From positions 27,730 through 91,729 of the forward strand of contig JAYFRI010000077.1 in the NCBI GenBank assembly GCA_034926015.1: 64,000 nt of DNA. Direction: 5' to 3'. Both the position numbers and the translations under genes were made by a program. Below the pieces are notes generated by a model, which was given only the letters and a program-made list of their open reading frames with translations, ran no database searches and was not told the origin of the DNA. The stretch is from Paludibacter sp. (GTDB lineage: Bacteria; Bacteroidota; Bacteroidia; Bacteroidales; Paludibacteraceae). How positions within the stretch are numbered: the stretch's first letter is position 1; every line of letters starts with the position of its first letter. This document shows, piece after piece, positions 9,719 to 60,794 of the stretch.

Positions 9719-9747
9719 AAGTCCCCTTTAGGGGATTTAGGGGGCTT
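9719..9747 (-). repeat. solo arm of the GC-rich palindromic (REP-like) family, abutting the thrS stop codon
   Basis: Minus strand reads AAGCCCCCTAAATCCCCTAAAGGGGACTT directly after the TAG of thrS. Confidence 0.85.
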
Positions 9748-11688
9748 CTAGTATTTATTCACCAAAGCATCCACTTCATCAGTCACAAGTTTAGCAAACT
9801 CAGCCACTTTCATAGTGCCTTTGTCACCTTCGCCCTGACGACGTACCGATACTTCGCCGTTTTCAGCTTCTTTCTCGCCTACGATAAGCATAAAAGGAAT
9901 GCGTTTTAATTCGTTATCACGTATTTTACGACCAATCTTTTCATTCCGATCATCTACCTGTACACGAACATCTTGAGAGTTCAGTTCTTTCGCAATTTCG
10001 AAAGCATAATCGTTAAATTTTTCGCTAATTGGCAATACTACCACCTGATCGGGCGTTAACCACAGCGGGAATTTACCGGCTGTGTGCTCAATGAGTACTG
10101 CAACGAAACGTTCCATAGAACCAAACGGTGCACGGTGAATCATTACCGGACGATGTTTTGCATTATCGTCACCGGTATATTCCAGTTCAAAACGCTCAGG
10201 CAAGTTATAATCCACCTGAATAGTTCCTAACTGCCATTTACGACCGATAGCATCGCGCACCATAAAGTCGAGTTTAGGGCCGTAGAATGCTGCTTCGCCG
10301 GTTTCCACTTTTGCTTTCAAACCTTTCTCGGCACAAGCTTCGATGATAGATTGTTCTGCTTTTTCCCAATTTTCGTCTGAACCAATGTATTTCTCACGGT
10401 TGTTAGGGTCGCGCAACGAAATCTGTGCTTCGAAGTTTTCGAATTCCAACGCATTGAAAATAATAAAGATGATGTCCATTACTTTCAAAAACTCGTCTTT
10501 CACCTGATCGGGGCGACAGAAAATATGCGCATCATCCTGCGTAAAGCTACGTACACGGGTCAAACCATGAAGCTCACCGCTTTGCTCGTAACGATACACG
10601 GTACCAAACTCAGCCAGACGAACCGGCAGATCTTTGTACGAACGTGGTTTGAACTTGTATATTTCGCAGTGGTGCGGACAGTTCATTGGTTTCAACAGAT
10701 ATTCTTCGCCTTCTTCGGGTGTATGAATAGGTTGGAACGAGTCTTTTCCGTATTTGGCGTAGTGACCGGAAGTCACATACAATTGTTTATTTCCAATGTG
10801 CGGAGTCATTACCTGTTGGTAATCGAATCGGCGTTGAATTTTCTTCAAAAAATCTTCCAATCTCAAACGTAAAGCTGTTCCGCGCGGCAACCACATCGGA
10901 AGTCCTTTTCCCACCATTTCGGAGAACATAAACAATTCCAGTTCGCGCCCTATCTTGCGGTGATCACGTTTTTTGGCTTCTTCCAAAAGTACAAGATATT
11001 CATCAAGCATTTTCTTTTTAGGGAAAGTGATGCCATAAATACGGGTAAGCATTTTTCGTTTTTCGTCACCTCTCCAGTAAGCTCCGGCTACGCTCAACAG
11101 CTTGATAGCTTTAATTTCGCCGGTATTTGGCAAGTGTGGTCCACGGCAAAGATCGGTAAAATTACCCTGTGAATACAAGGTAATAGTTCCATCTTCTAAA
11201 GCACTGATCAATTCCACTTTGTATTCGTCACCTTTATCTTCAAATTTTTTGAGCGCTTCGGCCTTGCTGATATCGGTACGAACAATTGCTTCTTTGCGTG
11301 CAGCCAGTTCTACCATCTTCGCTTCGATGGTGGGCAGGTCGCCTTCTTTAATTACTGCAGAACCCGGATCTACGTCGTAGTAGAAACCGTTTTCGATAGC
11401 CGGTCCGATACCGAATTTAATGCCCGGATACAATTCCTGAAGGGCTTCGGCCATAAGGTGAGCCGATGAGTGCCAATACGCATGTTTGGCTTCTTCATCG
11501 TCCCATTTGTGCAACTTAATGGCAGCATCGGTTTCGATCGGGCGGCTAAGGTCCCAGATTTGTTCGTTTACTGTGATGGCAAGCACCTCTTGTGCAAGTC
11601 GTGAGCTGATACTTTCAGCCAGTTGAAGTCCGGTAATGCCTTTGGCAAATTCGCGTACCGAACCGTCGGGGAATGTTACTTTAATCAT
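9748..11688 (-). CDS. thrS: threonine--tRNA ligase
   Basis: 646 aa. TGS domain start [20 protein letters not shown] editing motif and class II core ([24 protein letters not shown]). Confidence 0.97.
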
Positions 11689-12963: not shown

Positions 12964-12971
12964 TACTTTTG
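12964..12971 (+). promoter_or_regulatory. -7 box TACTTTTG upstream of queA
   Basis: Exact TAnnTTTG. It overlaps the TTG start used by the ORF track, which argues for a downstream start. Confidence 0.45.
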
Positions 12972-13004
12972 CACAAAAATACAACAATTTTTTCGGTAAG
13001 CCAC

Positions 13005-14231
13005 GTGAACCTAACAAAAGACAACAGCCCGATTTATATCGACGAATATAATTATCCTCTTCCTGATGAGCGCATTGCTAAATATCCTCTGACAAAACGG
13101 GATGCATCTAAATTATTGGTTTATAAAAATGGCGAAATCACCGAAAGTGTGTTTTCTTCCATTTCTGACTTTTTGCCCCACAATGCGCTCCTGGTTTACA
13201 ACAACACAAGGGTGATACAAGCCCGACTTCTTTTTAAAAAAGATACAGGCGCCCATATCGAGGTTTTCTGTCTGGAACCGTTACAACCTGCCGATTATGC
13301 ACAATCGCTGGGCTCAACTACCGAATGCGTTTGGAAATGTATGATAGGCAACCTAAAAAAATGGAAAGAAGGCAAGCTGAGCAAACAAATAGAATTGGCA
13401 GGTGAGAAATGTACATTTACTGCCGAACGACTTCAGACCGAAGGCAATACCCACTGCGTAAAGTTCAGTTGGGACAATGCCGCAATTCATTTTGCCGATA
13501 TACTCGAAAATGCAGGCGAATTGCCTATTCCGCCTTATTTGCATCGCAAAACCGAGGAAAGCGATCTGACCACCTACCAAACCGTTTATTCAAAAATCAA
13601 AGGTTCGGTGGCAGCTCCCACAGCCGGATTGCACTTTACCGAAGATGTTTTTGAGGGCCTGAAACCCAAACAGATTACAATAGAAGAAGTAACGCTCCAT
13701 GTAGGCGCCGGCACTTTTCAGCCTGTAAAAACACGCGACATTGCCGAACACCACATGCATACCGAAGTGATCTCGGTTCAACGCAGCACAATAGAAAATC
13801 TATTGAAGCAATTGGGCAATATCGTCGCAGTGGGAACAACCTCGGTAAGGACTTTGGAGAGTTTGTATTATATAGGATCTAGCCCCCTAAATCCCCCAAA
13901 GGGGGACTTACATGTTCTACACGTAGATCAATGGGCTCCATATCAGACAAAAGACAAGCTTACAACACGGGAGGCTCTACAAAACATCATTGATTACTTA
14001 GAAACTAACAACCTGACTACGCTTCATGCCGAAACGCAGATAATGATAAAACCGGGCTATAAATTTCGTGTAGTGGATGGTATGATTACTAACTTTCATC
14101 AACCTAAAAGCACCTTGCTTCTGCTTGTTTCGGCTTTTGTGGGTGGCAACTGGAAACAGATTTACGACTACGCGCTTGAAAATGATTTTCGTTTTCTGAG
14201 TTACGGCGACAGTTCGTTATTGTTAAAATAA
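13005..14231 (+). CDS. queA: S-adenosylmethionine:tRNA ribosyltransferase-isomerase (start uncertain; GTG 13005 proposed)
   Basis: YNYPLPDERIAKYP...APTAGLHFT...VGTTSVRTLES...NFHQPKSTLLLLVSAF are QueA motifs. Contains an in-frame repeat insert at 13882-13909. Confidence 0.9.
   Translation: MNLTKDNSPIYIDEYNYPLPDERIAKYPLTKRDASKLLVYKNGEITESVFSSISDFLPHNALLVYNNTRVIQARLLFKKDTGAHIEVFCLEPLQPADYAQSLGSTTECVWKCMIGNLKKWKEGKLSKQIELAGEKCTFTAERLQTEGNTHCVKFSWDNAAIHFADILENAGELPIPPYLHRKTEESDLTTYQTVYSKIKGSVAAPTAGLHFTEDVFEGLKPKQITIEEVTLHVGAGTFQPVKTRDIAEHHMHTEVISVQRSTIENLLKQLGNIVAVGTTSVRTLESLYYIGSSPLNPPKGDLHVLHVDQWAPYQTKDKLTTREALQNIIDYLETNNLTTLHAETQIMIKPGYKFRVVDGMITNFHQPKSTLLLLVSAFVGGNWKQIYDYALENDFRFLSYGDSSLLLK
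13882..13909 (+). repeat. solo arm of the GC-rich palindromic family inserted in frame inside queA
   Basis: GCCCCCTAAATCCCCCAAAGGGGGACTT, translated as SPLNPPKGDL. Confidence 0.9.
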
Positions 14232-14341: not shown

Positions 14342-14501
14342 CTCTCCCCCTCGTTTGCAACGAGGGGTAAATGGTAAAGCGTTTTAAACGCAAAAAAGAT
14401 AGTTTTATAATTAAAAATTGAAATATATCATCAGAAAATTACATATCTCTTTGTTATAAACAAACAACCATAAAACCCCTCGTTGCAAACGAGGGGGAGA
14501 G
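14342..14501 (+). mobile_element. MITE-like element, copy A (160 bp, hairpin-forming terminal inverted repeats)
   Basis: Ends are CTCTCCCCCTCGTTTGCAACGAGGGGT and ACCCCTCGTTGCAAACGAGGGGGAG. No ORF. Near-identical copy at 15528-15883. Confidence 0.8.
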
Positions 14502-14570: not shown

Positions 14571-15080
14571 CTATTTTACTTTATTATAGATATTATCTGT
14601 CCCAAATGGGAAATCGACATTTGTAAATTTAATTTGATTATTATTGATTATAATGATTTTGTATTTTTCAAATGAACTATTTAGATTAATTGTCTTATCG
14701 CTATTCAAGTGATAAAGTGTTACATCTATTCCATTTGAATCAATAATATATGCTCGTGTATATTTTGTATTGTCGTTGTTGTTAACGTGTGTATAATAAT
14801 ATTCACAAAAGCCATGTATGGTCATTTCTTTAGTTTCTCCATAAATATTTTTACCTATTATTGTCTCAGGTTTATCTATGTATGTCTCAGTAAAATTAAA
14901 TGTTGTTGTTGTCCCAATTATGTCAGGGTTCGAAATAAATGAACCATTTAGTACTTGAAGTACTTTCAATTGCTCAACTGTAAATGGACTCTTTATTTCC
15001 TCCTCATTTTTTGAACAGCCTAAAAAAAGAGTTAATACGATTACATTAGTGATCAATGCAGTTAAAAATGTATTTTTCAT
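14571..15080 (-). CDS. lipoprotein, function unknown
   Basis: Signal peptide plus lipobox (LTLFLGC-SKNEEE). Very AT-rich codon usage. Confidence 0.6.
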   Translation of the reverse strand: MKNTFLTALITNVIVLTLFLGCSKNEEEIKSPFTVEQLKVLQVLNGSFISNPDIIGTTTTFNFTETYIDKPETIIGKNIYGETKEMTIHGFCEYYYTHVNNNDNTKYTRAYIIDSNGIDVTLYHLNSDKTINLNSSFEKYKIIIINNNQIKFTNVDFPFGTDNIYNKVK

Positions 15081-22344: not shown

Positions 22345-22455
22345 GCCCCCTAAATCCCCCCAAAGGGGGACTTCAAGACTAATCCTCTATAAGAAAACAT
22401 CAAATATAAAAGCTACACGCACTCAAAAGTCCCCCCTTGGGGGGATTTAGGGGGC
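22345..22455 (+). repeat. complete REPIN-like doublet between guaA and tatD
   Basis: GCCCCCTAAATCCCCCCAAAGGGGGACTT, a 53-bp spacer, then AAGTCCCCCCTTGGGGGGATTTAGGGGGC. The arms are inverted repeats with one difference. Confidence 0.9.
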
Positions 22456-22465
22456 TGGAAATTCA

Positions 22466-23236
22466 ATGATAGACACCCATTCACATATCTATTCTGAGGA
22501 ATTCGACTCTGATCGTAATGAAGTCATTCTTCGTGCTCAAAAGGCAGGTGTAACAAAAATCATCCTGCCGAATGTCGACAGTGAATCACTTCCCCGCATG
22601 TTGCAGCTCGAGTCGGAATATCCGGGCTACTGTTTTGCTGCCATAGGACTGCATCCCACAAGCGTGAAGGAGAATTACGCCGAAGAGCTGGCAATTGTAA
22701 AAAAGGAATTAGAACGAAGAGAATATATTGCCATTGGCGAAATAGGCATCGATTTGTATTGGGACAAAAGTTTTTTGAAAGAACAAATTCAGGTTTTCGT
22801 CCAACAAATTGAATGGGCGCTCGAATACAATTTACCAGTCATTATTCATGTGCGCGATTCATTCAGCGAAACTATGCAGATGTTGGAACAATTTCGGGGC
22901 AAGGGGCTCAAAGGAGTTTTTCACAGTTTCACAGGCACCATCGACCAGGCAAGAGAGATTATTGAATTCGGTGGATTTTATATCGGCATCAATGGAATTG
23001 TTACCTTTAAAAACTCAGGACTCGATGCCGTGGTGGAGCAAATCGATGCACAATATTTATTGCTCGAGACCGATGCGCCTTACCTGACGCCCACACCTTT
23101 TCGGGGAAAACGCAACGAAAGCGAACATTTAACTTTAATAGCCGCAAAGCTTGCCACAATATTCAACATCAATTTTAACCAGATAACGAGGATAACAACT
23201 GAAAATGCATACAAATTGTTTAAAAAACTGATTTAA
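22466..23236 (+). CDS. tatD: TatD-family metal-dependent hydrolase/DNase
   Basis: MIDTHSHIY...GEIGIDLYW...HVRD...FHSFTG...ETDAPYL are the TatD motifs. Confidence 0.9.
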   Translation: MIDTHSHIYSEEFDSDRNEVILRAQKAGVTKIILPNVDSESLPRMLQLESEYPGYCFAAIGLHPTSVKENYAEELAIVKKELERREYIAIGEIGIDLYWDKSFLKEQIQVFVQQIEWALEYNLPVIIHVRDSFSETMQMLEQFRGKGLKGVFHSFTGTIDQAREIIEFGGFYIGINGIVTFKNSGLDAVVEQIDAQYLLLETDAPYLTPTPFRGKRNESEHLTLIAAKLATIFNINFNQITRITTENAYKLFKKLI

Positions 23237-32167: not shown

Positions 32168-33163
32168 TTATTTATAAATCTCCACAAATTTTTCAAATGC
32201 TTTTTTGGCCGAACCATTGGCCAATGCATCAGCAGCCTCGGCCTTGCACTGTTCCAACGCTTTCATCGGGCAACGCGTCTGAATGGCAAAAGCAGCATTA
32301 ACAACCACAGCATTTCTTTGCGCTTCTGTAGCCCTATTATCAAGCACATTGACAAATATCTTTGCTGCCTCGTCCACAGTGTTTCCACCCCACAATTCCT
32401 CTTGTCGAATTGTTTTAAAACCAAGTTGCTCGGGCGTAAAAACAAACTCACCGGCATTGTTTGTAATCTTACAAACATCCGTAAGCGAGATTTCATCGTA
32501 GCCATCGAGCGAATGTACAATGCTGTAATTTACGCCCAAATTTTGATAAATATAGGTATAAAGTCGCATCATTTTCAGGTTGTACACACCAAGACATTGA
32601 TAATGTGGTCGAACCGGACTAATCAGTGGTCCAAGTACATTAAAAAAAGTACGGACACCCAGGTTTTTACGCACAGGAGCTACATTTTTCATGGCCGGAT
32701 TACAAAATGGAGCATGCAAATAAGCAAAACCCGCTTCGTCGAGCGAGCGTTTCACAACATTAATATCAGTTGTGAATTTTGCTCCGAAATACTCTAGCAC
32801 ATTCGACGATCCACTCACCGAAGTGGCTCCGTAATTTCCATGTTTTGCAACAGTGTAACCTGCACCGGCCACCGTAAAGCAACTGCAGGTTGAAATATTG
32901 AAAGTATTTTTGCCATCACCACCCGTTCCTACAATGTCAAGCGGGTCAAATTCCGACAAATCCATCGGTATAGCCATCTCCAGCAGTGCATCGCGAAAAC
33001 CGATCACCTCATTTAATTCGATGCTTCGCATAAGAAAGACTGAAATAAAAGCAGCTATTTCAGATTCGTTGTATTTTCCGGCAGCTATATTGGTCATCAC
33101 CGCAGCTGCCTCATTGCGCGTAAGCGACTGGTGATTAAAAAGTTGATTCAGTATTTGTTTCAT
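32168..33163 (-). CDS. trpD: anthranilate phosphoribosyltransferase
   Basis: DIVGTGGDGKNTFNIST...KHGN is the TrpD signature. Confidence 0.95.
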   Translation of the reverse strand: MKQILNQLFNHQSLTRNEAAAVMTNIAAGKYNESEIAAFISVFLMRSIELNEVIGFRDALLEMAIPMDLSEFDPLDIVGTGGDGKNTFNISTCSCFTVAGAGYTVAKHGNYGATSVSGSSNVLEYFGAKFTTDINVVKRSLDEAGFAYLHAPFCNPAMKNVAPVRKNLGVRTFFNVLGPLISPVRPHYQCLGVYNLKMMRLYTYIYQNLGVNYSIVHSLDGYDEISLTDVCKITNNAGEFVFTPEQLGFKTIRQEELWGGNTVDEAAKIFVNVLDNRATEAQRNAVVVNAAFAIQTRCPMKALEQCKAEAADALANGSAKKAFEKFVEIYK

Positions 33164-33166
33164 AAA

Positions 33167-33300
33167 GCCTCCTCCCGACCTCCCCCAAAGGGGGAGGAGA
33201 AACGGGTATAATATGATTTGAGTTCAAAATAAAATATTTCAAATTTATAAAAACTTTGGAAATACGCCCTATTCCCTTCCTTTGGAAAAGTTCGGGGAGG
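33167..33300 (-). repeat. degenerate REPIN-like doublet at the trpG|trpD junction
   Basis: Minus strand reads CCTCCCCGAACTTTTCCAAAGGAAGGGAAT (inside the trpG 3' end), then a spacer, then TCTCCTCCCCCTTTGGGGGAGGTCGGGAGGAGGC ending 3 nt before the trpD ATG. Confidence 0.65.
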
Positions 33301-33859
33301 ATAACCAGTTTTTCAGCATTTGCTCACCATCGGGCGTCAATACTGATTCGGGATGGAACTGAACGCCACGCACATCGTATTCTTTGTGCGCCAAAGCCAT
33401 AATCATTCCTTCTTCATCCACGGCTGTAATTGTAAGGCATTCGGGCAAAGTTGTTTTTTCGGTAGCCCACGAATGGTAACGTCCCACTTCGAGTCGCTTT
33501 GGCAAACCATCGAACAACACATCTTTTTCTAACACATCCACCATTGAACTGATGCCGTGGTGTACTTCCGAAAGATTGATAAGTGTTCCGCCAAAGGCTT
33601 CGGCTATGGCCTGCTCGCCCAAACATACGCCAAGTATACTCTTCGAAGGCGCATAAGTCCGGATAACGTCGAGCAGAATGCCTGACTCCGAAGGAATTCC
33701 GGGTCCTGGCGAAAGAATTATTTTATCGAAACGGGCAATGTCTTCGAGCGCTATTTTATCGTTACGATGCACTTCCACATCGTCATATCCCAACTTTTTA
33801 ACTGCATGTACCAAATTATAGGTAAATGAGTCATAGTTATCAAAAACTAATATTTTCAT
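33269..33859 (-). CDS. trpG: anthranilate synthase component II (glutamine amidotransferase)
   Basis: MKILVFDNYDSFTYNL...GVCLGEQ...VQFHPES is the class I GATase triad context. Confidence 0.95.
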   Translation of the reverse strand: MKILVFDNYDSFTYNLVHAVKKLGYDDVEVHRNDKIALEDIARFDKIILSPGPGIPSESGILLDVIRTYAPSKSILGVCLGEQAIAEAFGGTLINLSEVHHGISSMVDVLEKDVLFDGLPKRLEVGRYHSWATEKTTLPECLTITAVDEEGMIMALAHKEYDVRGVQFHPESVLTPDGEQMLKNWLSSPNFSKGRE

Positions 33860-33871
33860 GTTCTATCTCCA

Positions 33872-33988
33872 GCCCCCTAAATCCCCCGAAGGGGGACTTA
33901 TAAGTGCATTTTTTTTATATTAATAATAATTCATGAGTAAACTTCCCTATTCAACTCTTTAAGTCCCCCTTCGGGGGATTTAGGGGGC
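33872..33988 (-). repeat. complete REPIN-like doublet at the trpE|trpG junction (perfect 28-bp inverted arms)
   Basis: GCCCCCTAAATCCCCCGAAGGGGGACTT at 33872-33899 and its exact reverse complement at 33961-33988. 61-bp AT-rich spacer. Confidence 0.92.
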
Positions 33989-35456
33989 TTTGTATTGGGG
34001 AAGCTGAAATTACTGCCTTTTTCAAGGCTGCCAGTTTATTATTTACTTCCTGCAATTCGCTCTCTTCGTCCGATTTGGCAACGACGCCGGCGCCGGCCTG
34101 ATAATAAAGCGTATTGTTTTTGCTTACAAACGAACGAATCGTAATGGCTTGGTTGAAACTTCCATCGAAACCAATATACCCGAGACATCCTCCATAAGGA
34201 CCACGGTCGTGGGGTTCAATCTGATCAATCAGCTGCATGGCCTTTATTTTTGGAGCTCCCGAAAGCGTTCCAGCGGGGAAAGTATCTGCAAAAAGCTTTA
34301 TGATTTTCGTCTCCGGCTTCATTTTTCCGCTTACACTCGACACCAAATGTAACACATGCGAATAGTACTGTACTTCGCGAAACACTTCCACTTCCACCTG
34401 ATCGGTATTACGACTGAGATCGTTGCGGGCCAAATCTACCAACATCACATGTTCGGCATTTTCCTTTTTATCGTTCCGCAGTTTTTCGGCCAATTGAAAA
34501 TCTTTTTCGTCGTCGCCGGTGCGTCTGAAAGTTCCGGCAATGGGTTTGATATAAGCTTTCTGCTTTTTTACATCGACTACTAAATGCGCTTCGGGAGAAG
34601 AACCAAAAATACGGAAATCGCCAAAATTGAAGTAAAAAAGATAAGGCGAAGGATTCACCGAACGTAAGGTACGATACAGCATAAAATCATCGCCTTTGTA
34701 TTGCTGATAAAAACGACGCGAAAGCACAATCTGAAAAACATTTCCTTTCTGACACTCTTGCTTTCCACGTGTCACCATGCGTTTAAAGTCTTCGTCAGAA
34801 ATATCGCATTTTTCAGCGCCTACTGCTTCGAATTGGTAAGTTGCCACATTGTTGTTCTCCAGAATACGTTCGATGCTTTGAATGGCCGAGCTTTCACCTT
34901 CGAGAAGATTTTCAATGATTGTCAATTCGTTATTAAAATGATTAATGGCTATTATGTATTTAAAAAAAACATAATGCAATCCCGGCATATCGCCCGGAAC
35001 AGTGTTTCGTGCCGAAAGCTTCACATCTTCGAAATACTGCACCGATTCATATGAAGTATAACCGAAAAGCCCGTTGATATTGAGTTTGCTTTCGTTTTCG
35101 GCAATTTCAAATTCCTTCAGAAACACATCGAAACGATCGGCCACAGTAAGTGGGTCGACCACCTGCGTTTCCACCTGAACGCCATTGGGATATTCTTCAA
35201 CGATCAGAAAATTATTCACAGATATACCGCCAATAGGGCTGAAACCAATATAGGAATAACTATTCTCTACTCCATGATAGTCCGAACTTTCGAGCAACAC
35301 TGAATTGGTGTACAAATCGCGCACTTTCAGATAAATACCTACCGGAGTTTGTAAATCGGCAAGCATTGTTTTTGATTTAACAAAAAGTCGGCCCCCTAAC
35401 CCCCTAAAGGGGGAATTAAGGTTAGCATCGTCTGATATTTTTTTTTCTTTATTCAT
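33951..35456 (-). CDS. trpE: anthranilate synthase component I (both termini overlap repeat arms; start 35456 or 35366)
   Basis: LLESSDYH...PSPYLFYF...GTLSGAPKIKAMQLI...RGPYGGCLGY are the TrpE motifs. Confidence 0.93.
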   Translation of the reverse strand: MNKEKKISDDANLNSPFRGLGGRLFVKSKTMLADLQTPVGIYLKVRDLYTNSVLLESSDYHGVENSYSYIGFSPIGGISVNNFLIVEEYPNGVQVETQVVDPLTVADRFDVFLKEFEIAENESKLNINGLFGYTSYESVQYFEDVKLSARNTVPGDMPGLHYVFFKYIIAINHFNNELTIIENLLEGESSAIQSIERILENNNVATYQFEAVGAEKCDISDEDFKRMVTRGKQECQKGNVFQIVLSRRFYQQYKGDDFMLYRTLRSVNPSPYLFYFNFGDFRIFGSSPEAHLVVDVKKQKAYIKPIAGTFRRTGDDEKDFQLAEKLRNDKKENAEHVMLVDLARNDLSRNTDQVEVEVFREVQYYSHVLHLVSSVSGKMKPETKIIKLFADTFPAGTLSGAPKIKAMQLIDQIEPHDRGPYGGCLGYIGFDGSFNQAITIRSFVSKNNTLYYQAGAGVVAKSDEESELQEVNNKLAALKKAVISASPIQSPLNPPKGDLKS

Positions 35457-35524
35457 AATGCTCTAAATATCTTGTTTTAATAATCAATAGTAATATTTCA
35501 TTCCCCTTCTGGGGATTAGGGGGC
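35391..35524 (-). repeat. REPIN-like doublet at the trpB|trpE junction
   Basis: Minus strand reads GCCCCCTAATCCCCAGAAGGGGAATGAA (its TAA is the trpB stop), then a spacer holding the trpE ATG, then CTTAATTCCCCCTTTAGGGGGTTAGGGGGC. Confidence 0.85.
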
Positions 35525-36757
35525 AGTTTTAAAATGTTTTACATAGGTGTCCATATCTTTATCTCCTCTGCCCGAAACCGTAACTACAACAATATCATCT
35601 GGTTTGAAGTTTTGTTTTTCTTTTTTCAAAATAGCCAGCGCATGTGCCGATTCGATAGCGGGAATAATACCCTCAAGTCTTGTCAGTTCAAAAGCAGCTT
35701 CGAGCGCCTCATCATCGTTCACAGGATATACCTTAGTGCGACCGGCTCGTGCCAGAAAAGCGTGAACTGGCCCAATGCCCGGGTAATCCAAACCCGCCGA
35801 AATAGAATAAGGTTCGGTAATCTGTCCATCCGCATCCTGCATCAACAAGGTTTTGGCTCCGTGAATAATTCCCACACTTCCGAGCGTAATTGTTGCTGCT
35901 GTTTCGGTAGTTTCAACGCCCATTCCGCCGGCTTCGGCCGAAATTATGTTCACTCGCTCATCATTAAGGTAATGATAATAAGTTCCCATAGCATTACTAC
36001 CACCGCCCACACAGGCAATCAAATGATCGGGATAATCGCGCCCTGTTTGTTCATTGAGTTGCTCCTTTATCTCTTCGCTGATCACCGACTGAAAAAATCC
36101 CACCATATCGGGATATGGATGTGGTCCAACGGTAGAACCAATGATGTAAAATGAATCGGGATTAGAGCACCAATACCGAATGGCTTCGTTGGTGGCATCT
36201 TTCAATGTCATATTTCCGCTCGTTACCGGCTCTACTGTTGCTCCGAGCATGCGCATTTTCTGAACGTTCAGGAACTGACGTTCCACATCCGTTTTACCCA
36301 TGAACACAATGCATTCAAGTCCCATCAATGCACAAGCTGTAGCTGTGGCCACTCCATGTTGTCCGGCGCCCGTTTCGGCAATGATACGTGTTTTGCCCAT
36401 GCGCTTAGCCAACAGAATTTGCCCCAGAGCATTGTTTATTTTATGTGCGCCTGTATGGTTCAGGTCTTCGCGCTTAAGGTAAATGTTTGTTCCATAGCAC
36501 GCCGACAAACGTTTGGCAAAATACAATGGCGAAGGGCGGCCCACATAGTTTTTGAGCAAGTCGTAGTATTCTGCTCTGAAAGAATCATCTTCTTTAATAG
36601 CAAAATAAGCTTCTTTCAGTCGCTCCACTGTTCCGTGCAAAATTTCGGGGATATAAGCTCCGCCAAATTCGCCGTAATAACCGGAAGAATCGATTCCCCA
36701 ACCCCCTGAAGGGGGAGTTAAGTTAGTTTCGTCTCCAAAATCATTTGTATTATTCAT
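35516..36757 (-). CDS. trpB: tryptophan synthase beta chain
   Basis: GYYGEFGGAYIPE...HTGAHKINN...GGGSNAMG are TrpB motifs. The N-terminal ~20 aa are encoded by a repeat element. Confidence 0.95.
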   Translation of the reverse strand: MNNTNDFGDETNLTPPSGGWGIDSSGYYGEFGGAYIPEILHGTVERLKEAYFAIKEDDSFRAEYYDLLKNYVGRPSPLYFAKRLSACYGTNIYLKREDLNHTGAHKINNALGQILLAKRMGKTRIIAETGAGQHGVATATACALMGLECIVFMGKTDVERQFLNVQKMRMLGATVEPVTSGNMTLKDATNEAIRYWCSNPDSFYIIGSTVGPHPYPDMVGFFQSVISEEIKEQLNEQTGRDYPDHLIACVGGGSNAMGTYYHYLNDERVNIISAEAGGMGVETTETAATITLGSVGIIHGAKTLLMQDADGQITEPYSISAGLDYPGIGPVHAFLARAGRTKVYPVNDDEALEAAFELTRLEGIIPAIESAHALAILKKEKQNFKPDDIVVVTVSGRGDKDMDTYVKHFKTAP

Positions 36758-36822
36758 ATCTAATAAAAGTCATTAAATTTACCAATTCTCTTTTTGTTCT
36801 CTCCCCTTTAGGGGTTGGGGGT
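36695..36822 (-). repeat. REPIN-like doublet between the trp attenuator and the conserved trpB core
   Basis: Minus strand reads TACCCCCAACCCCTAAAGGGGAGAGA, then a spacer holding the trpB ATG, then TTAACTCCCCCTTCAGGGGGTTGGGGA. Confidence 0.8.
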
Positions 36823-36828
36823 ATTTAT

Positions 36829-36865
36829 AAAAAAAGGCTTATCGTGAGTTACGACAAGCCTTTTT
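36829..36865 (-). terminator. trp attenuator terminator
   Basis: Minus strand reads AAGGCTTGTCGT-AACTC-ACGATAAGCCTT followed by T7. Lies between the WWW leader ORF and trpB. Confidence 0.8.
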
Positions 36866-36909
36866 ATAAATCATTATATTTTTTCTGACATACATACAGG
36901 AAGTTCCGC

Positions 36910-36972
36910 TCACGATTGGGTTATTCGTAAGTGCCACCACCAAAATTTATTAATTGTCAGAGCTGTTTTCAT
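36910..36972 (-). CDS. trpL: trp operon leader peptide (MKTALTINKFWWWHLRITQS)
   Basis: 20-codon ORF with three consecutive TGG codons (36934-36942). Followed by alternative pairings and a terminator. Confidence 0.8.
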   Translation of the reverse strand: MKTALTINKFWWWHLRITQS

Positions 36973-58827: not shown

Positions 58828-58853
58828 GTTCCCCCTTTAGGGGGTTAGGGGGC
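58828..58853 (+). repeat. solo arm (second-arm type) of the GC-rich palindromic family upstream of the GH13 gene
   Basis: GTTCCCCCTTTAGGGGGTTAGGGGGC followed by TGGAG, as in the trpE|trpG and guaA|tatD copies. Confidence 0.8.
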
Positions 58854-58889: not shown

Positions 58890-60794
58890 ATGAAACAAGC
58901 AATCAACCAAGTTCATACTCTGAAAAACAATAGCGGCAACACTATCCTTTCGCAAACCCTTCGCCTATGCCTGTGCCTCAGCCTTTGCCTGAGCCTCTCC
59001 TCTTTCACCAAATCTCCGGCCCTGGTGGAGCGGCTCGAACCAACTTCGTGGTGGGTAGGAATGCAACAAACAGAATTGCAATTAATGCTGTATGGAACAG
59101 GAATAGCTACTGCCGACATTACGATACAATATCCGGGAGTTACCCTGTTGCGCAAGCAACTCACCGACAATCCGAATTATGCTTTTTTGTACCTGAATAT
59201 AGCCGCAAATACACAGCCGGGAAAATTCAGTATTATCATTAAAAAAGGAAAAAAGAAGCAGACGCTCAGCTACGAACTAAAAGCCCGACGCTCAGGTTCG
59301 GCAGCCAGGGAAAGCTTTACCGAAGCCGATGCTGTGTACCTGTTGATGCCCGACCGCTTCGCCAATGGCAATACCGCCAACGACTCTGTGAAAGCTTACT
59401 TTCAGGGTGTGAACAGACTCGACCCCGGCAAGCGCCACGGAGGAGATATAGAAGGGATAATTTCTAAAGTGCCTTATATGGCCGATCTGGGCGTGACTGC
59501 GCTCTGGACGACACCTCTTTTCGACAACAACGATACAAATTATTCCTACCACCACTACGGTTGCAGCGATTACTACAAAATTGATCCGCGCCTGGGACAG
59601 AACGAGGACTACCTGCGTTTGTCAGATGCTTGCCATGCCAACGGACTCAAACTGATCATCGATGTGGTGCCCAATCATTGCAGTTCGGCACATTGGTGGC
59701 TGAAAGATCTACCGGCTAAAGACTGGTTCAATGTTTGGCCGGCGTATACATCTTCCAATTACCGCATGACAGCCTGGACCGATCCGCACGCTGCCAAAGC
59801 CGATCTGCACCGACTTACAAATGGTTGGTTTGCGCCCAATATGCCCGACTTTAACCTTAAGAACAACCTTGTTTACGATTATTTGCGCCAGGTATATGTG
59901 TATTGGATAGAATATGCCAATATCGACGGGATGCGCGTGGATACTTACCCTTACAACGACATTCGTGTGGCGGCCAACTTTATACAATCTATCCGCAACG
60001 AATATCCCCGCATGAATGTGGTGGGCGAATGTTGGGTGAAAACGCCCGCCGAAGTTGCTTATTTTCAATCGGGAAACAACAACAAAGATGGTTTCGATTC
60101 GAGGCTCACAAGTGTGATGGATTTTTGCCTGAAGGATGTATTGGCCAACTCCTTCAACGAAACGGATAGTTGGGATGGCGGTCTTTCCCGCTTTTATGCG
60201 CATTATGCGCAGGACTTTGTGTACCCCAACACCCATCTGATTATGAATTTTCTCGACAATCACGATATCGACCGCTACGCCACAGCCGTAAAACGCGATA
60301 AGTCTAAGTATAAAATGGGATTGGCCATGTTAATCACCGCCCGTGGTTATCCACAAATTTATTATGGTACCGAAATAATGCTGGATGGAATTCAGGGATC
60401 GTACGAAGGCCACAGGTTCGATTTTCCGGGAGGTTGGCCAGCCGACAGTCGGAATGCTTTTACAGCCGGAGGTCGTAGTGCTGAGGAAAACGAGATTTTC
60501 GATTATCTGAAACTCCTCCTCAACTACCGTAAAAACAATCCCGTATTGCAAAGCGGTAAAATGAAACAATTTATCCCTGAGGATGGTATTTACGTCACCT
60601 TCCGCTACAATGCTGACAAAACAATTATGGTGATTGCCAACAACAACGCCACCGACAAGGATGTGGATCTGAAAAGATTTGACGAAATGCTAACAGGTAA
60701 AACACAGGGAACTGATATTGTAACGCAAAAAACTTACCGGCTCGACCAACCCATCAACGTGGCCGGAAAGTCGGTGCTGATAGTTGAAGTTTAA
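58890..60794 (+). CDS. GH13 alpha-amylase-family enzyme (cyclomaltodextrinase/neopullulanase-like with N-terminal domain)
   Basis: LMPDRFANGN, GGDIEGII..L.YM.DLGVTALW, IIDVVPNHCS, GMRVDTYPY, VGECW and FLDNHD are GH13 regions I-IV. Confidence 0.9.
   Translation: MKQAINQVHTLKNNSGNTILSQTLRLCLCLSLCLSLSSFTKSPALVERLEPTSWWVGMQQTELQLMLYGTGIATADITIQYPGVTLLRKQLTDNPNYAFLYLNIAANTQPGKFSIIIKKGKKKQTLSYELKARRSGSAARESFTEADAVYLLMPDRFANGNTANDSVKAYFQGVNRLDPGKRHGGDIEGIISKVPYMADLGVTALWTTPLFDNNDTNYSYHHYGCSDYYKIDPRLGQNEDYLRLSDACHANGLKLIIDVVPNHCSSAHWWLKDLPAKDWFNVWPAYTSSNYRMTAWTDPHAAKADLHRLTNGWFAPNMPDFNLKNNLVYDYLRQVYVYWIEYANIDGMRVDTYPYNDIRVAANFIQSIRNEYPRMNVVGECWVKTPAEVAYFQSGNNNKDGFDSRLTSVMDFCLKDVLANSFNETDSWDGGLSRFYAHYAQDFVYPNTHLIMNFLDNHDIDRYATAVKRDKSKYKMGLAMLITARGYPQIYYGTEIMLDGIQGSYEGHRFDFPGGWPADSRNAFTAGGRSAEENEIFDYLKLLLNYRKNNPVLQSGKMKQFIPEDGIYVTFRYNADKTIMVIANNNATDKDVDLKRFDEMLTGKTQGTDIVTQKTYRLDQPINVAGKSVLIVEV
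58963..58997 (+). repeat. hexanucleotide tandem repeat (GCCTNN) x 6 inside the GH13 signal-peptide region
   Basis: GCCTAT GCCTGT GCCTCA GCCTTT GCCTGA GCCTC, encoding LCLCLSLCLSL. Confidence 0.8.

Follow-up and report, generated by a model that had tools for sequence, protein, structure and literature searches.

Among described systems, those closest in shape to the element reported here are the REPIN/RAYT systems, built from repetitive extragenic palindromic sequences (REPs). In these, short inverted hairpin arms surround a spacer and pair into a long stem, no transposase open reading frame (ORF) is enclosed, no target-site duplication is left, the arms lie near gene ends and sometimes donate stop codons, and the enzyme gene is flanked by the same repeats. 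A preliminary description of a 64,000-nt stretch of Paludibacter sp. DNA (contig JAYFRI010000077.1 of assembly GCA_034926015.1, positions 27,730-91,729; hereafter the window) noted REPIN-like pairs of inverted GC-rich arms, here called doublets, at the junctions of the trp operon. In the current study, these doublets were found very probably to be element-derived junctions that donate stop and start signals to the trp genes; with less assurance, we favor the explanation that they are nuclease-less copies of a translation-compatible mobile element of Bacteroidota that is linked to DUF559 genes.

The likeness to REPINs was borne out for shape and mobility, but not for membership of the REP/RAYT family. 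As in REPs, short inverted palindromes are paired (22-30-nt arms, five inverted pairs, stable long stems). They are not extragenic, however, given that arms overlap the ends of trpB, trpE and trpG and the starts of trpB and trpE, and that one arm lies inside queA. GTAG or CGTC tags mark the two large REP superfamilies (PMC3733652). The elements described here carry neither tag, are associated with a PD-(D/E)xK (DUF559) gene instead of a Y1 transposase gene (the Y1 genes that were found have different hairpins), reside in a Bacteroidota host, overlap coding sequence systematically, and contain a core start codon with a translated leader.

In behavior, the elements also resemble the Rickettsia palindromic elements (RPEs), which are palindromes of about 100-150 bp that lie in frame in unrelated genes and are translated (PMC10969869, PMC3733652); RPEs and intragenic REPs alike are accommodated at protein termini or in surface loops (PMC10969869, PMC3733652). 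The likeness is one of behavior only, as the host phylum is unrelated and the arm sequences appear unrelated to RPE families 1-10 of Rickettsia. Moreover, RPEs have no known partner enzyme, whereas the present elements have full-length copies with a nuclease gene, exist in a stop-and-restart version suited to operon junctions and replace native sequence.

A further likeness is to free-standing or gene-fracturing homing genes such as that of I-Bth0305I, which falls in the same Vsr/DUF559 structural clade (PMC3424549). Shared features include insertion in or between conserved genes, sporadic distribution, decayed copies, co-conversion of flanking sequence, hairpins ahead of the nuclease ORF, and an overlap with the downstream gene (PMC2677866). 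The full-length relatives of the window copies encode a member of a nuclease family with proven homing members and keep the catalytic residues, while the window copies are nuclease-less. Presence/absence and decayed copies of the homing type were observed at the trpB-trpE junction, and presence/absence also at one leucyl-tRNA synthetase (LeuRS) site; linked differences in flanking sequence, as expected of co-conversion, were seen at other trp junctions. Unlike homing genes, the present elements have no intron or intein, are bounded by inverted GC-rich arms, include many nuclease-less doublets, occupy many sites per genome rather than one cognate site, and form a cassette that is translated within host proteins or donates a start codon.

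Finally, ERIC/IRU, Correia/NEMIS and Chunjie are small inverted-repeat elements that are co-transcribed in operons and can alter mRNA processing or stability (PMC10969869), and Chunjie resides in operons without breaking them (PMC10969869). Those elements have DDE-type terminal inverted repeats, target-site duplications and intact host signals; in the present case nothing is duplicated, and stop and start are removed. No description of the present element was found in open-access papers on DUF559, Vsr-like homing, REPIN/RAYT in Bacteroidetes and endonuclease insertions in LeuRS, and the element class looks undescribed so far.

Arm doublets in the trp operon and elsewhere in the window

The trp operon lies on the minus strand (trpB 35516-36757, trpE 33951-35456, trpG 33269-33859, trpD 32168-33163, then trpC, trpF and trpA). 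Four doublets were located in this operon and a fifth between guaA and tatD, and three arms stand alone, all in the places first reported. The arm pattern (at most 3 mismatches) matched the window 6 times, compared with 0.00 times in 100 shuffles; twelve C4-6/N3-4/G4-6 hairpins were counted in the 64 kb. The features are as follows.

36695-36822, minus strand: doublet 1, between the trp leader and trpB, type A; 5' arm 36801-36822 (ACCCCCAACCCCTAAAGGGGAG), 3' arm 36695-36718; inverted repeat 36696-36717 / 36799-36820, 77% match, gap 81 nt
35391-35524, minus strand: doublet 2, between trpB and trpE, type A; 5' arm head GCCCCCTAA, 3' arm 35391-35420; inverted repeat 35391-35412 / 35503-35524, 86% match, 90 nt between the 22-nt cores
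33871-33989, minus strand: doublet 3, between trpE and trpG, type B; arms 33871-33900 / 33960-33989, gap 59 nt
33167-33300, minus strand: doublet 4, between trpG and trpD, type C (CCTCC/GGAGG variant); arms 33167-33200 / about 33268-33300
22345-22455, plus strand: doublet 5, between guaA and tatD, type B; arms 22345-22373 / 22427-22455, 97% match, gap 53 nt
9719-9747, minus strand: solo 5'-type arm (type B), directly past the stop of the minus-strand gene 9748-11688 and followed by a terminator-like hairpin
13882-13909, plus strand: solo type B arm, in frame within queA (12969-14231), encoding SPLNPPKGDL
58828-58853, plus strand: solo 3'-type arm; gene 58890-60794 has its ATG about 37 nt further downstream
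36829-36972, minus strand: trp attenuator, outside the element; leader peptide ORF 36910-36972 (MKTALTINKFWWWHLRITQS), terminator hairpin and T-run 36829-36865

Arms are 22-30 nt long, each with its own C4-6/G4-6 hairpin, and conform to the consensus sequences GCCCCCTAA(AT) and CCCCCNNNGGGGGA(CTT/AT). The gap between arms across doublets is 53-90 nt, and not 53-75 bp as originally stated. At least three arm subtypes were distinguished, in place of the single motif first described: type A (GCCCCCTAACCCCCTAAAGGGGGAAT) at the leader-trpB and trpB-trpE junctions; type B (GCCCCCTAAATCCCCCGAAGGGGGACTT) at trpE-trpG, at guaA-tatD, after gene 9748-11688 and in queA; and the CCTCC-rich type C at trpG-trpD only. 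The trpG-trpD doublet does exist, in the form of a diverged CCTCC/GGAGG variant whose 5' arm has decayed; better preserved copies of this variant exist in the related loci L006, L008 and L028. The trpE-trpG arms do form a perfect inverted repeat, which is complementary over 30/30 rather than 28/28 positions.

When the doublets were folded as RNA, predicted free energies (dG) were between -41 and -68 kcal/mol, with z between -2.6 and -9.2. The extremes include doublet 3 (dG -68.3, z -9.2) and the decayed doublet 4 (z -2.6); doublet 5 (dG -59.9, z -8.7) begins 2 nt past the guaA stop and finishes 10 nt upstream of the tatD ATG (22466). Doublet 1 is located between the trp attenuator terminator and trpB, 6 nt past the T-run. 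A scan of the window with Rfam at gathering thresholds matched only a tRNA, such that the doublets and the trp leader belong to no known RNA family.

Replacement of native stop and start signals

Junctions were compared across 80 related trp operons, in which the genes were located and the junctions aligned with the window. Locus numbers in the range L001-L103 denote related trp loci and other loci, and L155-L181 denote metagenome loci with DUF559 genes. The trp-locus sample comprises about 1.3 Mb, and as related loci share ancestry, counts such as 75/81 genes or 227 versus 36 arms (below) are of non-independent events. In distant Bacteroidales, trp junctions measure 2-40 bp and contain no arms. 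The native trpB-trpE ends, with KHFKK and a stop followed by MKLFVNSKK, were seen in L014 and L075. Native trpE-trpG junctions (ASGK and a stop, 7 nt, then ATG AAA ATA, the opening of MKILVFDN) were seen in L014, L028, L044 and L067, and L001-L003 have no doublet 1, their trpB starting natively with MDYSIDNN. When doublet-bearing junctions were compared with these relatives' junctions, the native stop, the spacer, and the start with 1-8 flanking codons were found to be missing.

In the window, the trpB stop TAA (35516-35518) falls within the 5' arm head of doublet 2. The sole available trpB start is the ATG at 36755-36757 in the AT-rich core of doublet 1, from which the frame crosses the 3' arm to give MNNTNDFGDETNLTPPSGGWG-IDSSGYYGEFGG, the arm being translated as LTPPSGGWG; the NCBI annotation also starts TrpB (413 aa, MEA4850392.1) at this ATG. 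Similarly, the longest trpE frame starts at the ATG at 35454-35456 in the core of doublet 2 and gives MNKEKKISDDANLNSPFRGLGG-RLFVKSKTML, with the 3' arm read as NSPFRGLGG. The peptides expected from these element-donated starts are MNNTNDFGDETNLTPPSGGWGIDSSGYYGEFGG for TrpB and MNKEKKISDDANLNSPFRGLGGRLFVK for TrpE. At its other end, trpE runs through the 5' arm of doublet 3 (SPLNPPKGDL) to a TGA at 33951-33953. The trpG gene retains its own ATG (33857-33859), 11 nt past the 3' arm of doublet 3, and runs through the decayed 5' arm of doublet 4 (SSPNFSKGRE) to a TAG at 33269-33271; the 3' arm of doublet 4 ends 3 nt upstream of the trpD ATG (33161-33163). The preliminary description of the doublets as intercistronic and free of ORFs thus does not hold for several copies, as doublets contain the trpB stop and the ATGs of both trpB and trpE, and the queA arm is in frame. 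As judged from the sequence, trpB seems to depend on element-encoded initiation, and initiation of trpE is probably also element-encoded; the case that the core ATG would be the start actually used is strong for trpB and weaker for trpE.

As a separate observation, 3' arms of types B and C end 3-11 nt ahead of a native ATG (33165-33200, 33861-33871, 22455-22466), and purine runs resembling GGAG or GGAGGAGG (GGGAGGAGGCTTTATG, GGGGGCTGGAGATAGAACATG) are found there, which are Shine-Dalgarno-like.

The same arrangement was seen across the related operons. There are 81 trp genes with a 3' arm just upstream, and in 75/81 the frame of a core ATG stays open across 1-3 tandem arms and continues into the gene; for 46 of those 75, no other ATG is available downstream. 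Among upstream genes, 59 have their stop in or adjoining a 5' arm. The arm is read in differing frames by site (SPLGVGG, VPLQGLGV, TPPSGGWG), which argues that what is conserved is an open frame and not a particular peptide. Polarity is conserved as well: the leader frame (core ATG plus leader) is present on the transcribed strand only in 53/70 doublets, and on the opposite strand only in 1. An orientation test with the spacer motif ATTACTATTGAT (at most 3 mismatches) gave 38 versus 24, which is non-discriminating in AT-rich DNA. Fusion points vary among lineages, for trpG (GV/KILVFDN, GAG/ISILVFDN, GC/RILVFDN, GG/SILVFDN) and likewise for trpB, which has several; these differences point to repeated events. 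No target-site duplication was found at 66 doublets, where flanking direct repeats measured 0.94 nt compared with 1.17 +/- 0.16 for shuffled pairs.

Polymorphism of the doublets and enrichment in trp operons

The window TrpE is 98% identical to TrpE of three uncultured Paludibacter genomes, and among these genomes the trpE-trpG junction exists in three states: the type B doublet of the window, a type A doublet (L002), and an unrelated 95-bp spacer with native signals (L001 and L003). Doublet 3 and the last approximately 22 nt of trpE are common to the window and L004, whose TrpE is 92% identical, and differ from the closer L001-L003. Moreover, TrpB alleles with and without doublet 1 (the native form has 396 aa) group together at 90% identity; linked differences between them span the first ~85 residues, and the remainder is near-identical. 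Both the tract shared with L004 and the TrpB N-terminal differences are short co-conversion tracts. In addition, 25/75 leader modules (a leader plus 3' arm) are closest to a module at a different junction; in L024, for example, the trpE and trpG modules are 90% identical. Taken together with junctions that are empty in distant Bacteroidales and in some Paludibacter, as seen in the comparison of related trp operons that had been proposed at the outset, these data support the view of the doublets as a dispersed, recently mobile repeat family and not an ancient fixed feature of the operon.

Repeated targeting of the trp locus, which had also been suggested, was supported by arm density: 0.46/kb in trp operons (227 arms, 496 kb), compared with 0.043/kb in their flanks (36 arms, 841 kb). 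Paludibacter trp junctions hold other selfish or small genes too, namely GxxExxY/PDDEXK_3 nucleases, four-helix-bundle proteins of the kind found in 23S rRNA intervening sequences (IVS), MazF-like and RelE-like toxin modules, an AAA ATPase and a RhuM/Fic protein (L007, L009, L014, L017, L020, L023, L025, L026, L034, L039, L043, L045, L048, L055, L057 and L061). The non-DUF559 invader genes have no C5/G5 arms, and in Paludibacter the trp operon appears to be a landing zone of a general kind.

DUF559 genes between the same arms

In five related genomes, the trpB-trpE or trpE-trpG junction is 565-817 bp long and contains a 120-125-codon ORF between the same arms and leader modules. L021, L029 and L045 have this ORF intact, L005 and L048 have it with a frameshift, and it encodes a DUF559 domain protein (PF04480, E = 2e-32). 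Leader-plus-3'-arm modules stand in two places, in frame ahead of the nuclease gene and again ahead of the host gene; if these copies recombined, exactly a doublet of the window type would remain. The window doublets, doublet 2 among them, can be aligned from end to end with the modules that immediately precede DUF559 genes, and identity is 61-66%. The trpB-trpE site was observed with an intact DUF559 gene, with a decayed one, with a solo doublet, and empty.

The DUF559 subfamily has at least 1381 members, and in 105/120 of the subfamily proteins listed, the invariant MFYGALPIH follows a leader and arm peptide read in the same frame. Across 18 aligned members the core is 68-78% identical to the reference P0120, with D, ExD and H invariant. 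The core matches the DUF559 structure 3hrl (E = 6e-18), and the fold of an AlphaFold model (pLDDT 77) matches the homing endonuclease I-Bth0305I (TM 0.65/0.81) and Vsr, in agreement with the placement of DUF559, I-Bth0305I-type and Vsr nucleases in one clade by Steczkiewicz et al. (PMC3424549). The same architecture was found outside trp, as SpoIID-DUF559-MFS transporter, GH77-DUF559-AIRS and HlyD-DUF559-ABC ATPase, in each case with the downstream gene fused to a leader-plus-arm module.

The association of arms with DUF559 is both specific, when compared with other genes in trp junctions, and general across DUF559 subfamilies. At trp junctions, two to three arms accompany the gene in 5/5 cases with DUF559, compared with 0/6 junctions that hold GxxExxY or four-helix-bundle genes. 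As a sample unbiased towards trp, metagenome contigs were scanned with a DUF559 alignment. Inverted GC-rich arms scoring above shuffles were present at about 55 of 77 DUF559 genes with enough flank; arm sequences differ from one DUF559 subfamily to the next, but all keep one design, in which a C-run head leads into a hairpin. When the window type A and B arms were matched to these contigs, 34/36, 12/13, 15/22 and 5/5 matches lay within 350 nt of DUF559, and three of 21 close-subfamily loci are at trpB-trpE. The type C arm gave no matches near DUF559 (blastn-short against the metagenome DUF559 loci), and its link to DUF559 is a by-eye similarity to arms in L161 and L168 only. The DUF559 proteins P0029 and P0048, which occur on many contigs, all lie at the same HlyD-ABC junction and thus provide no direct evidence of recent transposition. 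On balance, these data lean towards DUF559 as the partner nuclease of the arms.

Copies translated within proteins

Of 82 DUF559 matches, 24 lie in uninterrupted frames of at least 260 codons. The host proteins were named from conserved sequence motifs only. By this means, DUF559 was placed within isoleucyl-tRNA synthetase (IleRS) in L155, with a complete 1316-codon frame, and in L169, and within LeuRS at two sites, both of which are filled in L160, with site 1 filled in L171 and site 2 in L181. Arm-encoded peptides border each of these in-frame DUF559 domains of LeuRS and IleRS. Other hosts appear to be a methylmalonyl-CoA mutase and a DegT aminotransferase, and N-terminal fusions to ArgB, IspF, guanylate kinase and a TolC-like protein were recognized. 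In L181, LeuRS site 1 holds a nuclease-less doublet that encodes just two arm peptides, at the site that is full-length in L160 and L171. Protein-coding sites thus display the same series as the trp junction, from full-length copy to doublet and then, presumably, to empty. Sources of P0120, a DUF559 protein that stands alone in P. propionicigenes WB4, label it 'leucyl-tRNA synthetase', and the in-frame copies in LeuRS and IleRS probably explain this misnaming.

The solo arm of the window queA likewise lies in a hypervariable surface loop (13870-13920, between LESLYYIG and HV.QW.PY), where the alignment with QueA structures breaks. Over 120 homologues (P0121-P0240), this loop is hypervariable in sequence and nearly constant in length; its variants include low-complexity GEGKG stretches as long as 43 residues, together with peptides resembling translations of other arm families (SPALSKGEGE, SPNPSPRGEGN).

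Other repeats and signals

The trp attenuator looks classic, with a 20-codon leader peptide that contains three consecutive Trp codons, and is conserved in L001-L010. A simple scan for terminators and promoters was set aside, given that its counts were near shuffle expectation and that it missed an obvious attenuator terminator. Second-order insertions were seen, in which a 3' arm has a smaller hairpin (e.g., TCCCGACGGAGACGGGA) within its loop, giving peptides such as NSPQFIPTETGGDRDS, or a small palindrome (CGCCACGGCGGGC) lies within a 5' arm (L021:9115-9754, L114 upstream of 5001, and L006 upstream of trpB).

Between the convergent queA and ORF 14571-15080, an unrelated perfect 27-nt inverted pair (CTCTCCCCCTCGTTTGCAACGAGGGGT) occupies 14342-14501. 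Each of its arms has a 9-bp hairpin and the arms are 106 nt apart; the design is doublet-like and the sequence unrelated, and blastn-short against the metagenome DUF559 loci gave no matches near DUF559. The 850-bp AT-rich segment 15081-15929 contains no ORF of 120 codons or more and includes five of the longest inverted repeats of the window (I1, I5, I6, I8 and I24).

Proposed pathway of the element

In the combined explanation that we favor, the full-length element would be a gene for DUF559, a Vsr-like PD-(D/E)xK protein, bounded by the same GC-rich hairpin arms as the doublets. At operon junctions, the 5' arm or the AT-rich core would end the upstream cistron. In type A, the core ATG with its A-rich leader would restart translation through the 3' arm into the next gene, which has lost its start and 1-8 codons; in other lineages, the whole cassette would be translated in frame within host proteins. 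As a first step, a DUF559-bearing copy would enter a junction through break- or nick-induced recombination, the partners being either two copies or an occupied and an empty allele, with no target-site duplication and with short co-conversion tracts. DUF559 may drive this copying by nicking or cutting the arms or the empty sites. Next, the nuclease gene would decay and be deleted between the repeated leader-plus-arm modules. The leftover doublet could no longer be lost precisely because it supplies stop and start signals, which would make the process a ratchet; solo doublets may persist since removal would cost the downstream gene its start.

Several points weigh against this pathway. The window itself contains no DUF559 gene. 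The nuclease gene is placed differently among lineages, between two doublets in Paludibacter and inside a single one in distant subfamilies, which does not establish one geometry of excision or insertion. A site-specific homing nuclease fits poorly with arms at many junctions or with a solo arm in queA, and the case that DUF559 may cut or move arms is one of association. With respect to donated signals, types B and C keep the native ATG, and trpE has an in-frame Met 8 codons past the arm that could be its start. In addition, the pathway offers no explanation for the tenfold enrichment of arms in trp operons.

Alternative explanations

One alternative is that the doublets are vacant landing sites of a homing DUF559 gene, and not its relics, with the arms spread by another route. 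The physical association of arms with DUF559 would apply here equally, and such a view is consistent with the 70 doublets found against 6 DUF559 copies in 1.3 Mb, with the distant subfamilies that place DUF559 exactly between the two arms of one doublet, and with a fold that is closest to a characterized homing endonuclease. It nevertheless leaves the origin of doublets and solo arms unexplained, and the Paludibacter gene is situated between doublets rather than within one. Moreover, the decayed nuclease genes of L005 and L048 show loss, a direct route from full-length copy to doublet, and variation of the arms with the DUF559 subfamily fits co-inheritance at least as well as target recognition. 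We consider this explanation unlikely.

We assign a similarly low probability to the idea that the doublets are expression elements selected by the host, such as RNase III sites, mRNA stabilizers, or devices that couple or insulate the trp cistrons, with a mobile origin being secondary. The doublets are missing from the same junctions in close relatives (L001, L003, L014, L028, L044 and L067), arm peptides are read in three frames, unrelated arm sequences occupy the same places, and the same arms occur inside the coding regions of queA, LeuRS and IleRS, where there is no cistron boundary. The strict polarity with transcription (53 to 1) would suit host selection, but polarity and frame conservation are already explained by keeping the downstream gene translated. 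There remain in its favor the persistence of elements at the same junctions across the genus, the precedents of REP, ERIC and Correia sequences on operon mRNA (PMC10969869, PMC3733652), and the very stable long stems, which would present the start codon in a large AT-rich loop and hold the upstream stop inside the stem, where a terminating ribosome would open it. Translational coupling is plausible because the predicted folds place the upstream stop within the long stem and the start in its loop, and RNA-level effects are possible.

Less probable still is that the arms are true REPs copied by a Y1 (HUH) transposase encoded elsewhere, with DUF559 as just one of many REP-bordered genes. The doublet shape, the length of 110-135 bp and the long stem are those of REPINs, and the lack of target-site duplication is as IS200/IS605-type chemistry predicts. 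Arms in one doublet resemble each other most (match 0.79, versus 0.73 to other doublets' arms; loops match in 46/70, versus 31 expected), and REPs are known to donate stops and lie in ORFs (PMC3733652). Bacteroidales trp junctions do contain Y1 genes, but in place of C5/G5 arms the three that were found have other hairpins at their borders (GGGCTGAAAGCCC and GGTGCAGCGCACC). The window arm consensus sequences show neither a GTAG nor a CGTC tag, and no Y1 gene was found in the window or in the Paludibacter arm loci when these were searched by tblastn with a Bacteroidales Y1 query (about 1.3 Mb of trp loci and L081-L103). By comparison, the association of arms with DUF559 is far stronger (5/5 versus 0/6) and extends across subfamilies with different arms. 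The three Y1 genes, which are IS200-like and lie within trp junctions with their own hairpins on both sides (L033:4480-5400, L071:3600-4450 and L072:9130-9591), are themselves candidates for genuine REP/RAYT-like units in Bacteroidales.

A classical MITE, a miniature derivative of a DDE insertion sequence, was rejected: inverted arms are present, but no target-site duplication accompanies them, and the insertions take the place of native sequence. A full-length form with matching arms does exist and encodes DUF559, a nuclease not known to have strand-transfer activity; no DDE transposase was seen. Integron attC sites were dismissed in view of a conserved trp gene order, junctions that are empty in relatives and the lack of GTTRRRY / RYYYAAC core sites, and no integrase was noticed among the ORFs of the window, which were listed with no protein-family screen.

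Implications

The present findings give DUF559, a widespread PD-(D/E)xK family of unknown function, a candidate role as the partner nuclease of palindromic repeats, an analogue of the RAYT/REP relationship with a different chemistry. It is a tentative but real possibility that DUF559 proteins are the nucleases of an unrecognized class of mobile elements, and that the trp operon described here represents an irreversible capture of host signals.

If so, selfish DNA can occupy tightly packed operons and essential genes without splicing, either by staying translatable or by bringing its own stop and start, and the loss of a native start codon, upon which the host comes to depend on the element, would provide an example of a ratchet. 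Element-encoded peptides would be part of the N-termini and start sites of Trp enzymes and of many further proteins that these genomes encode, and annotation would transfer errors of the kind seen for the P. propionicigenes DUF559 protein. Bacteroidota largely ignore Shine-Dalgarno signals, and for this phylum the leader and its AT-rich core may serve as a portable module for starting translation. If the favored explanation is true, the arms encode linker peptides, such that the cassette can sit in frame in an essential LeuRS or IleRS or rebuild operon junctions, and the REPIN-like, nuclease-less doublets that are left behind would no longer be removable by the host.

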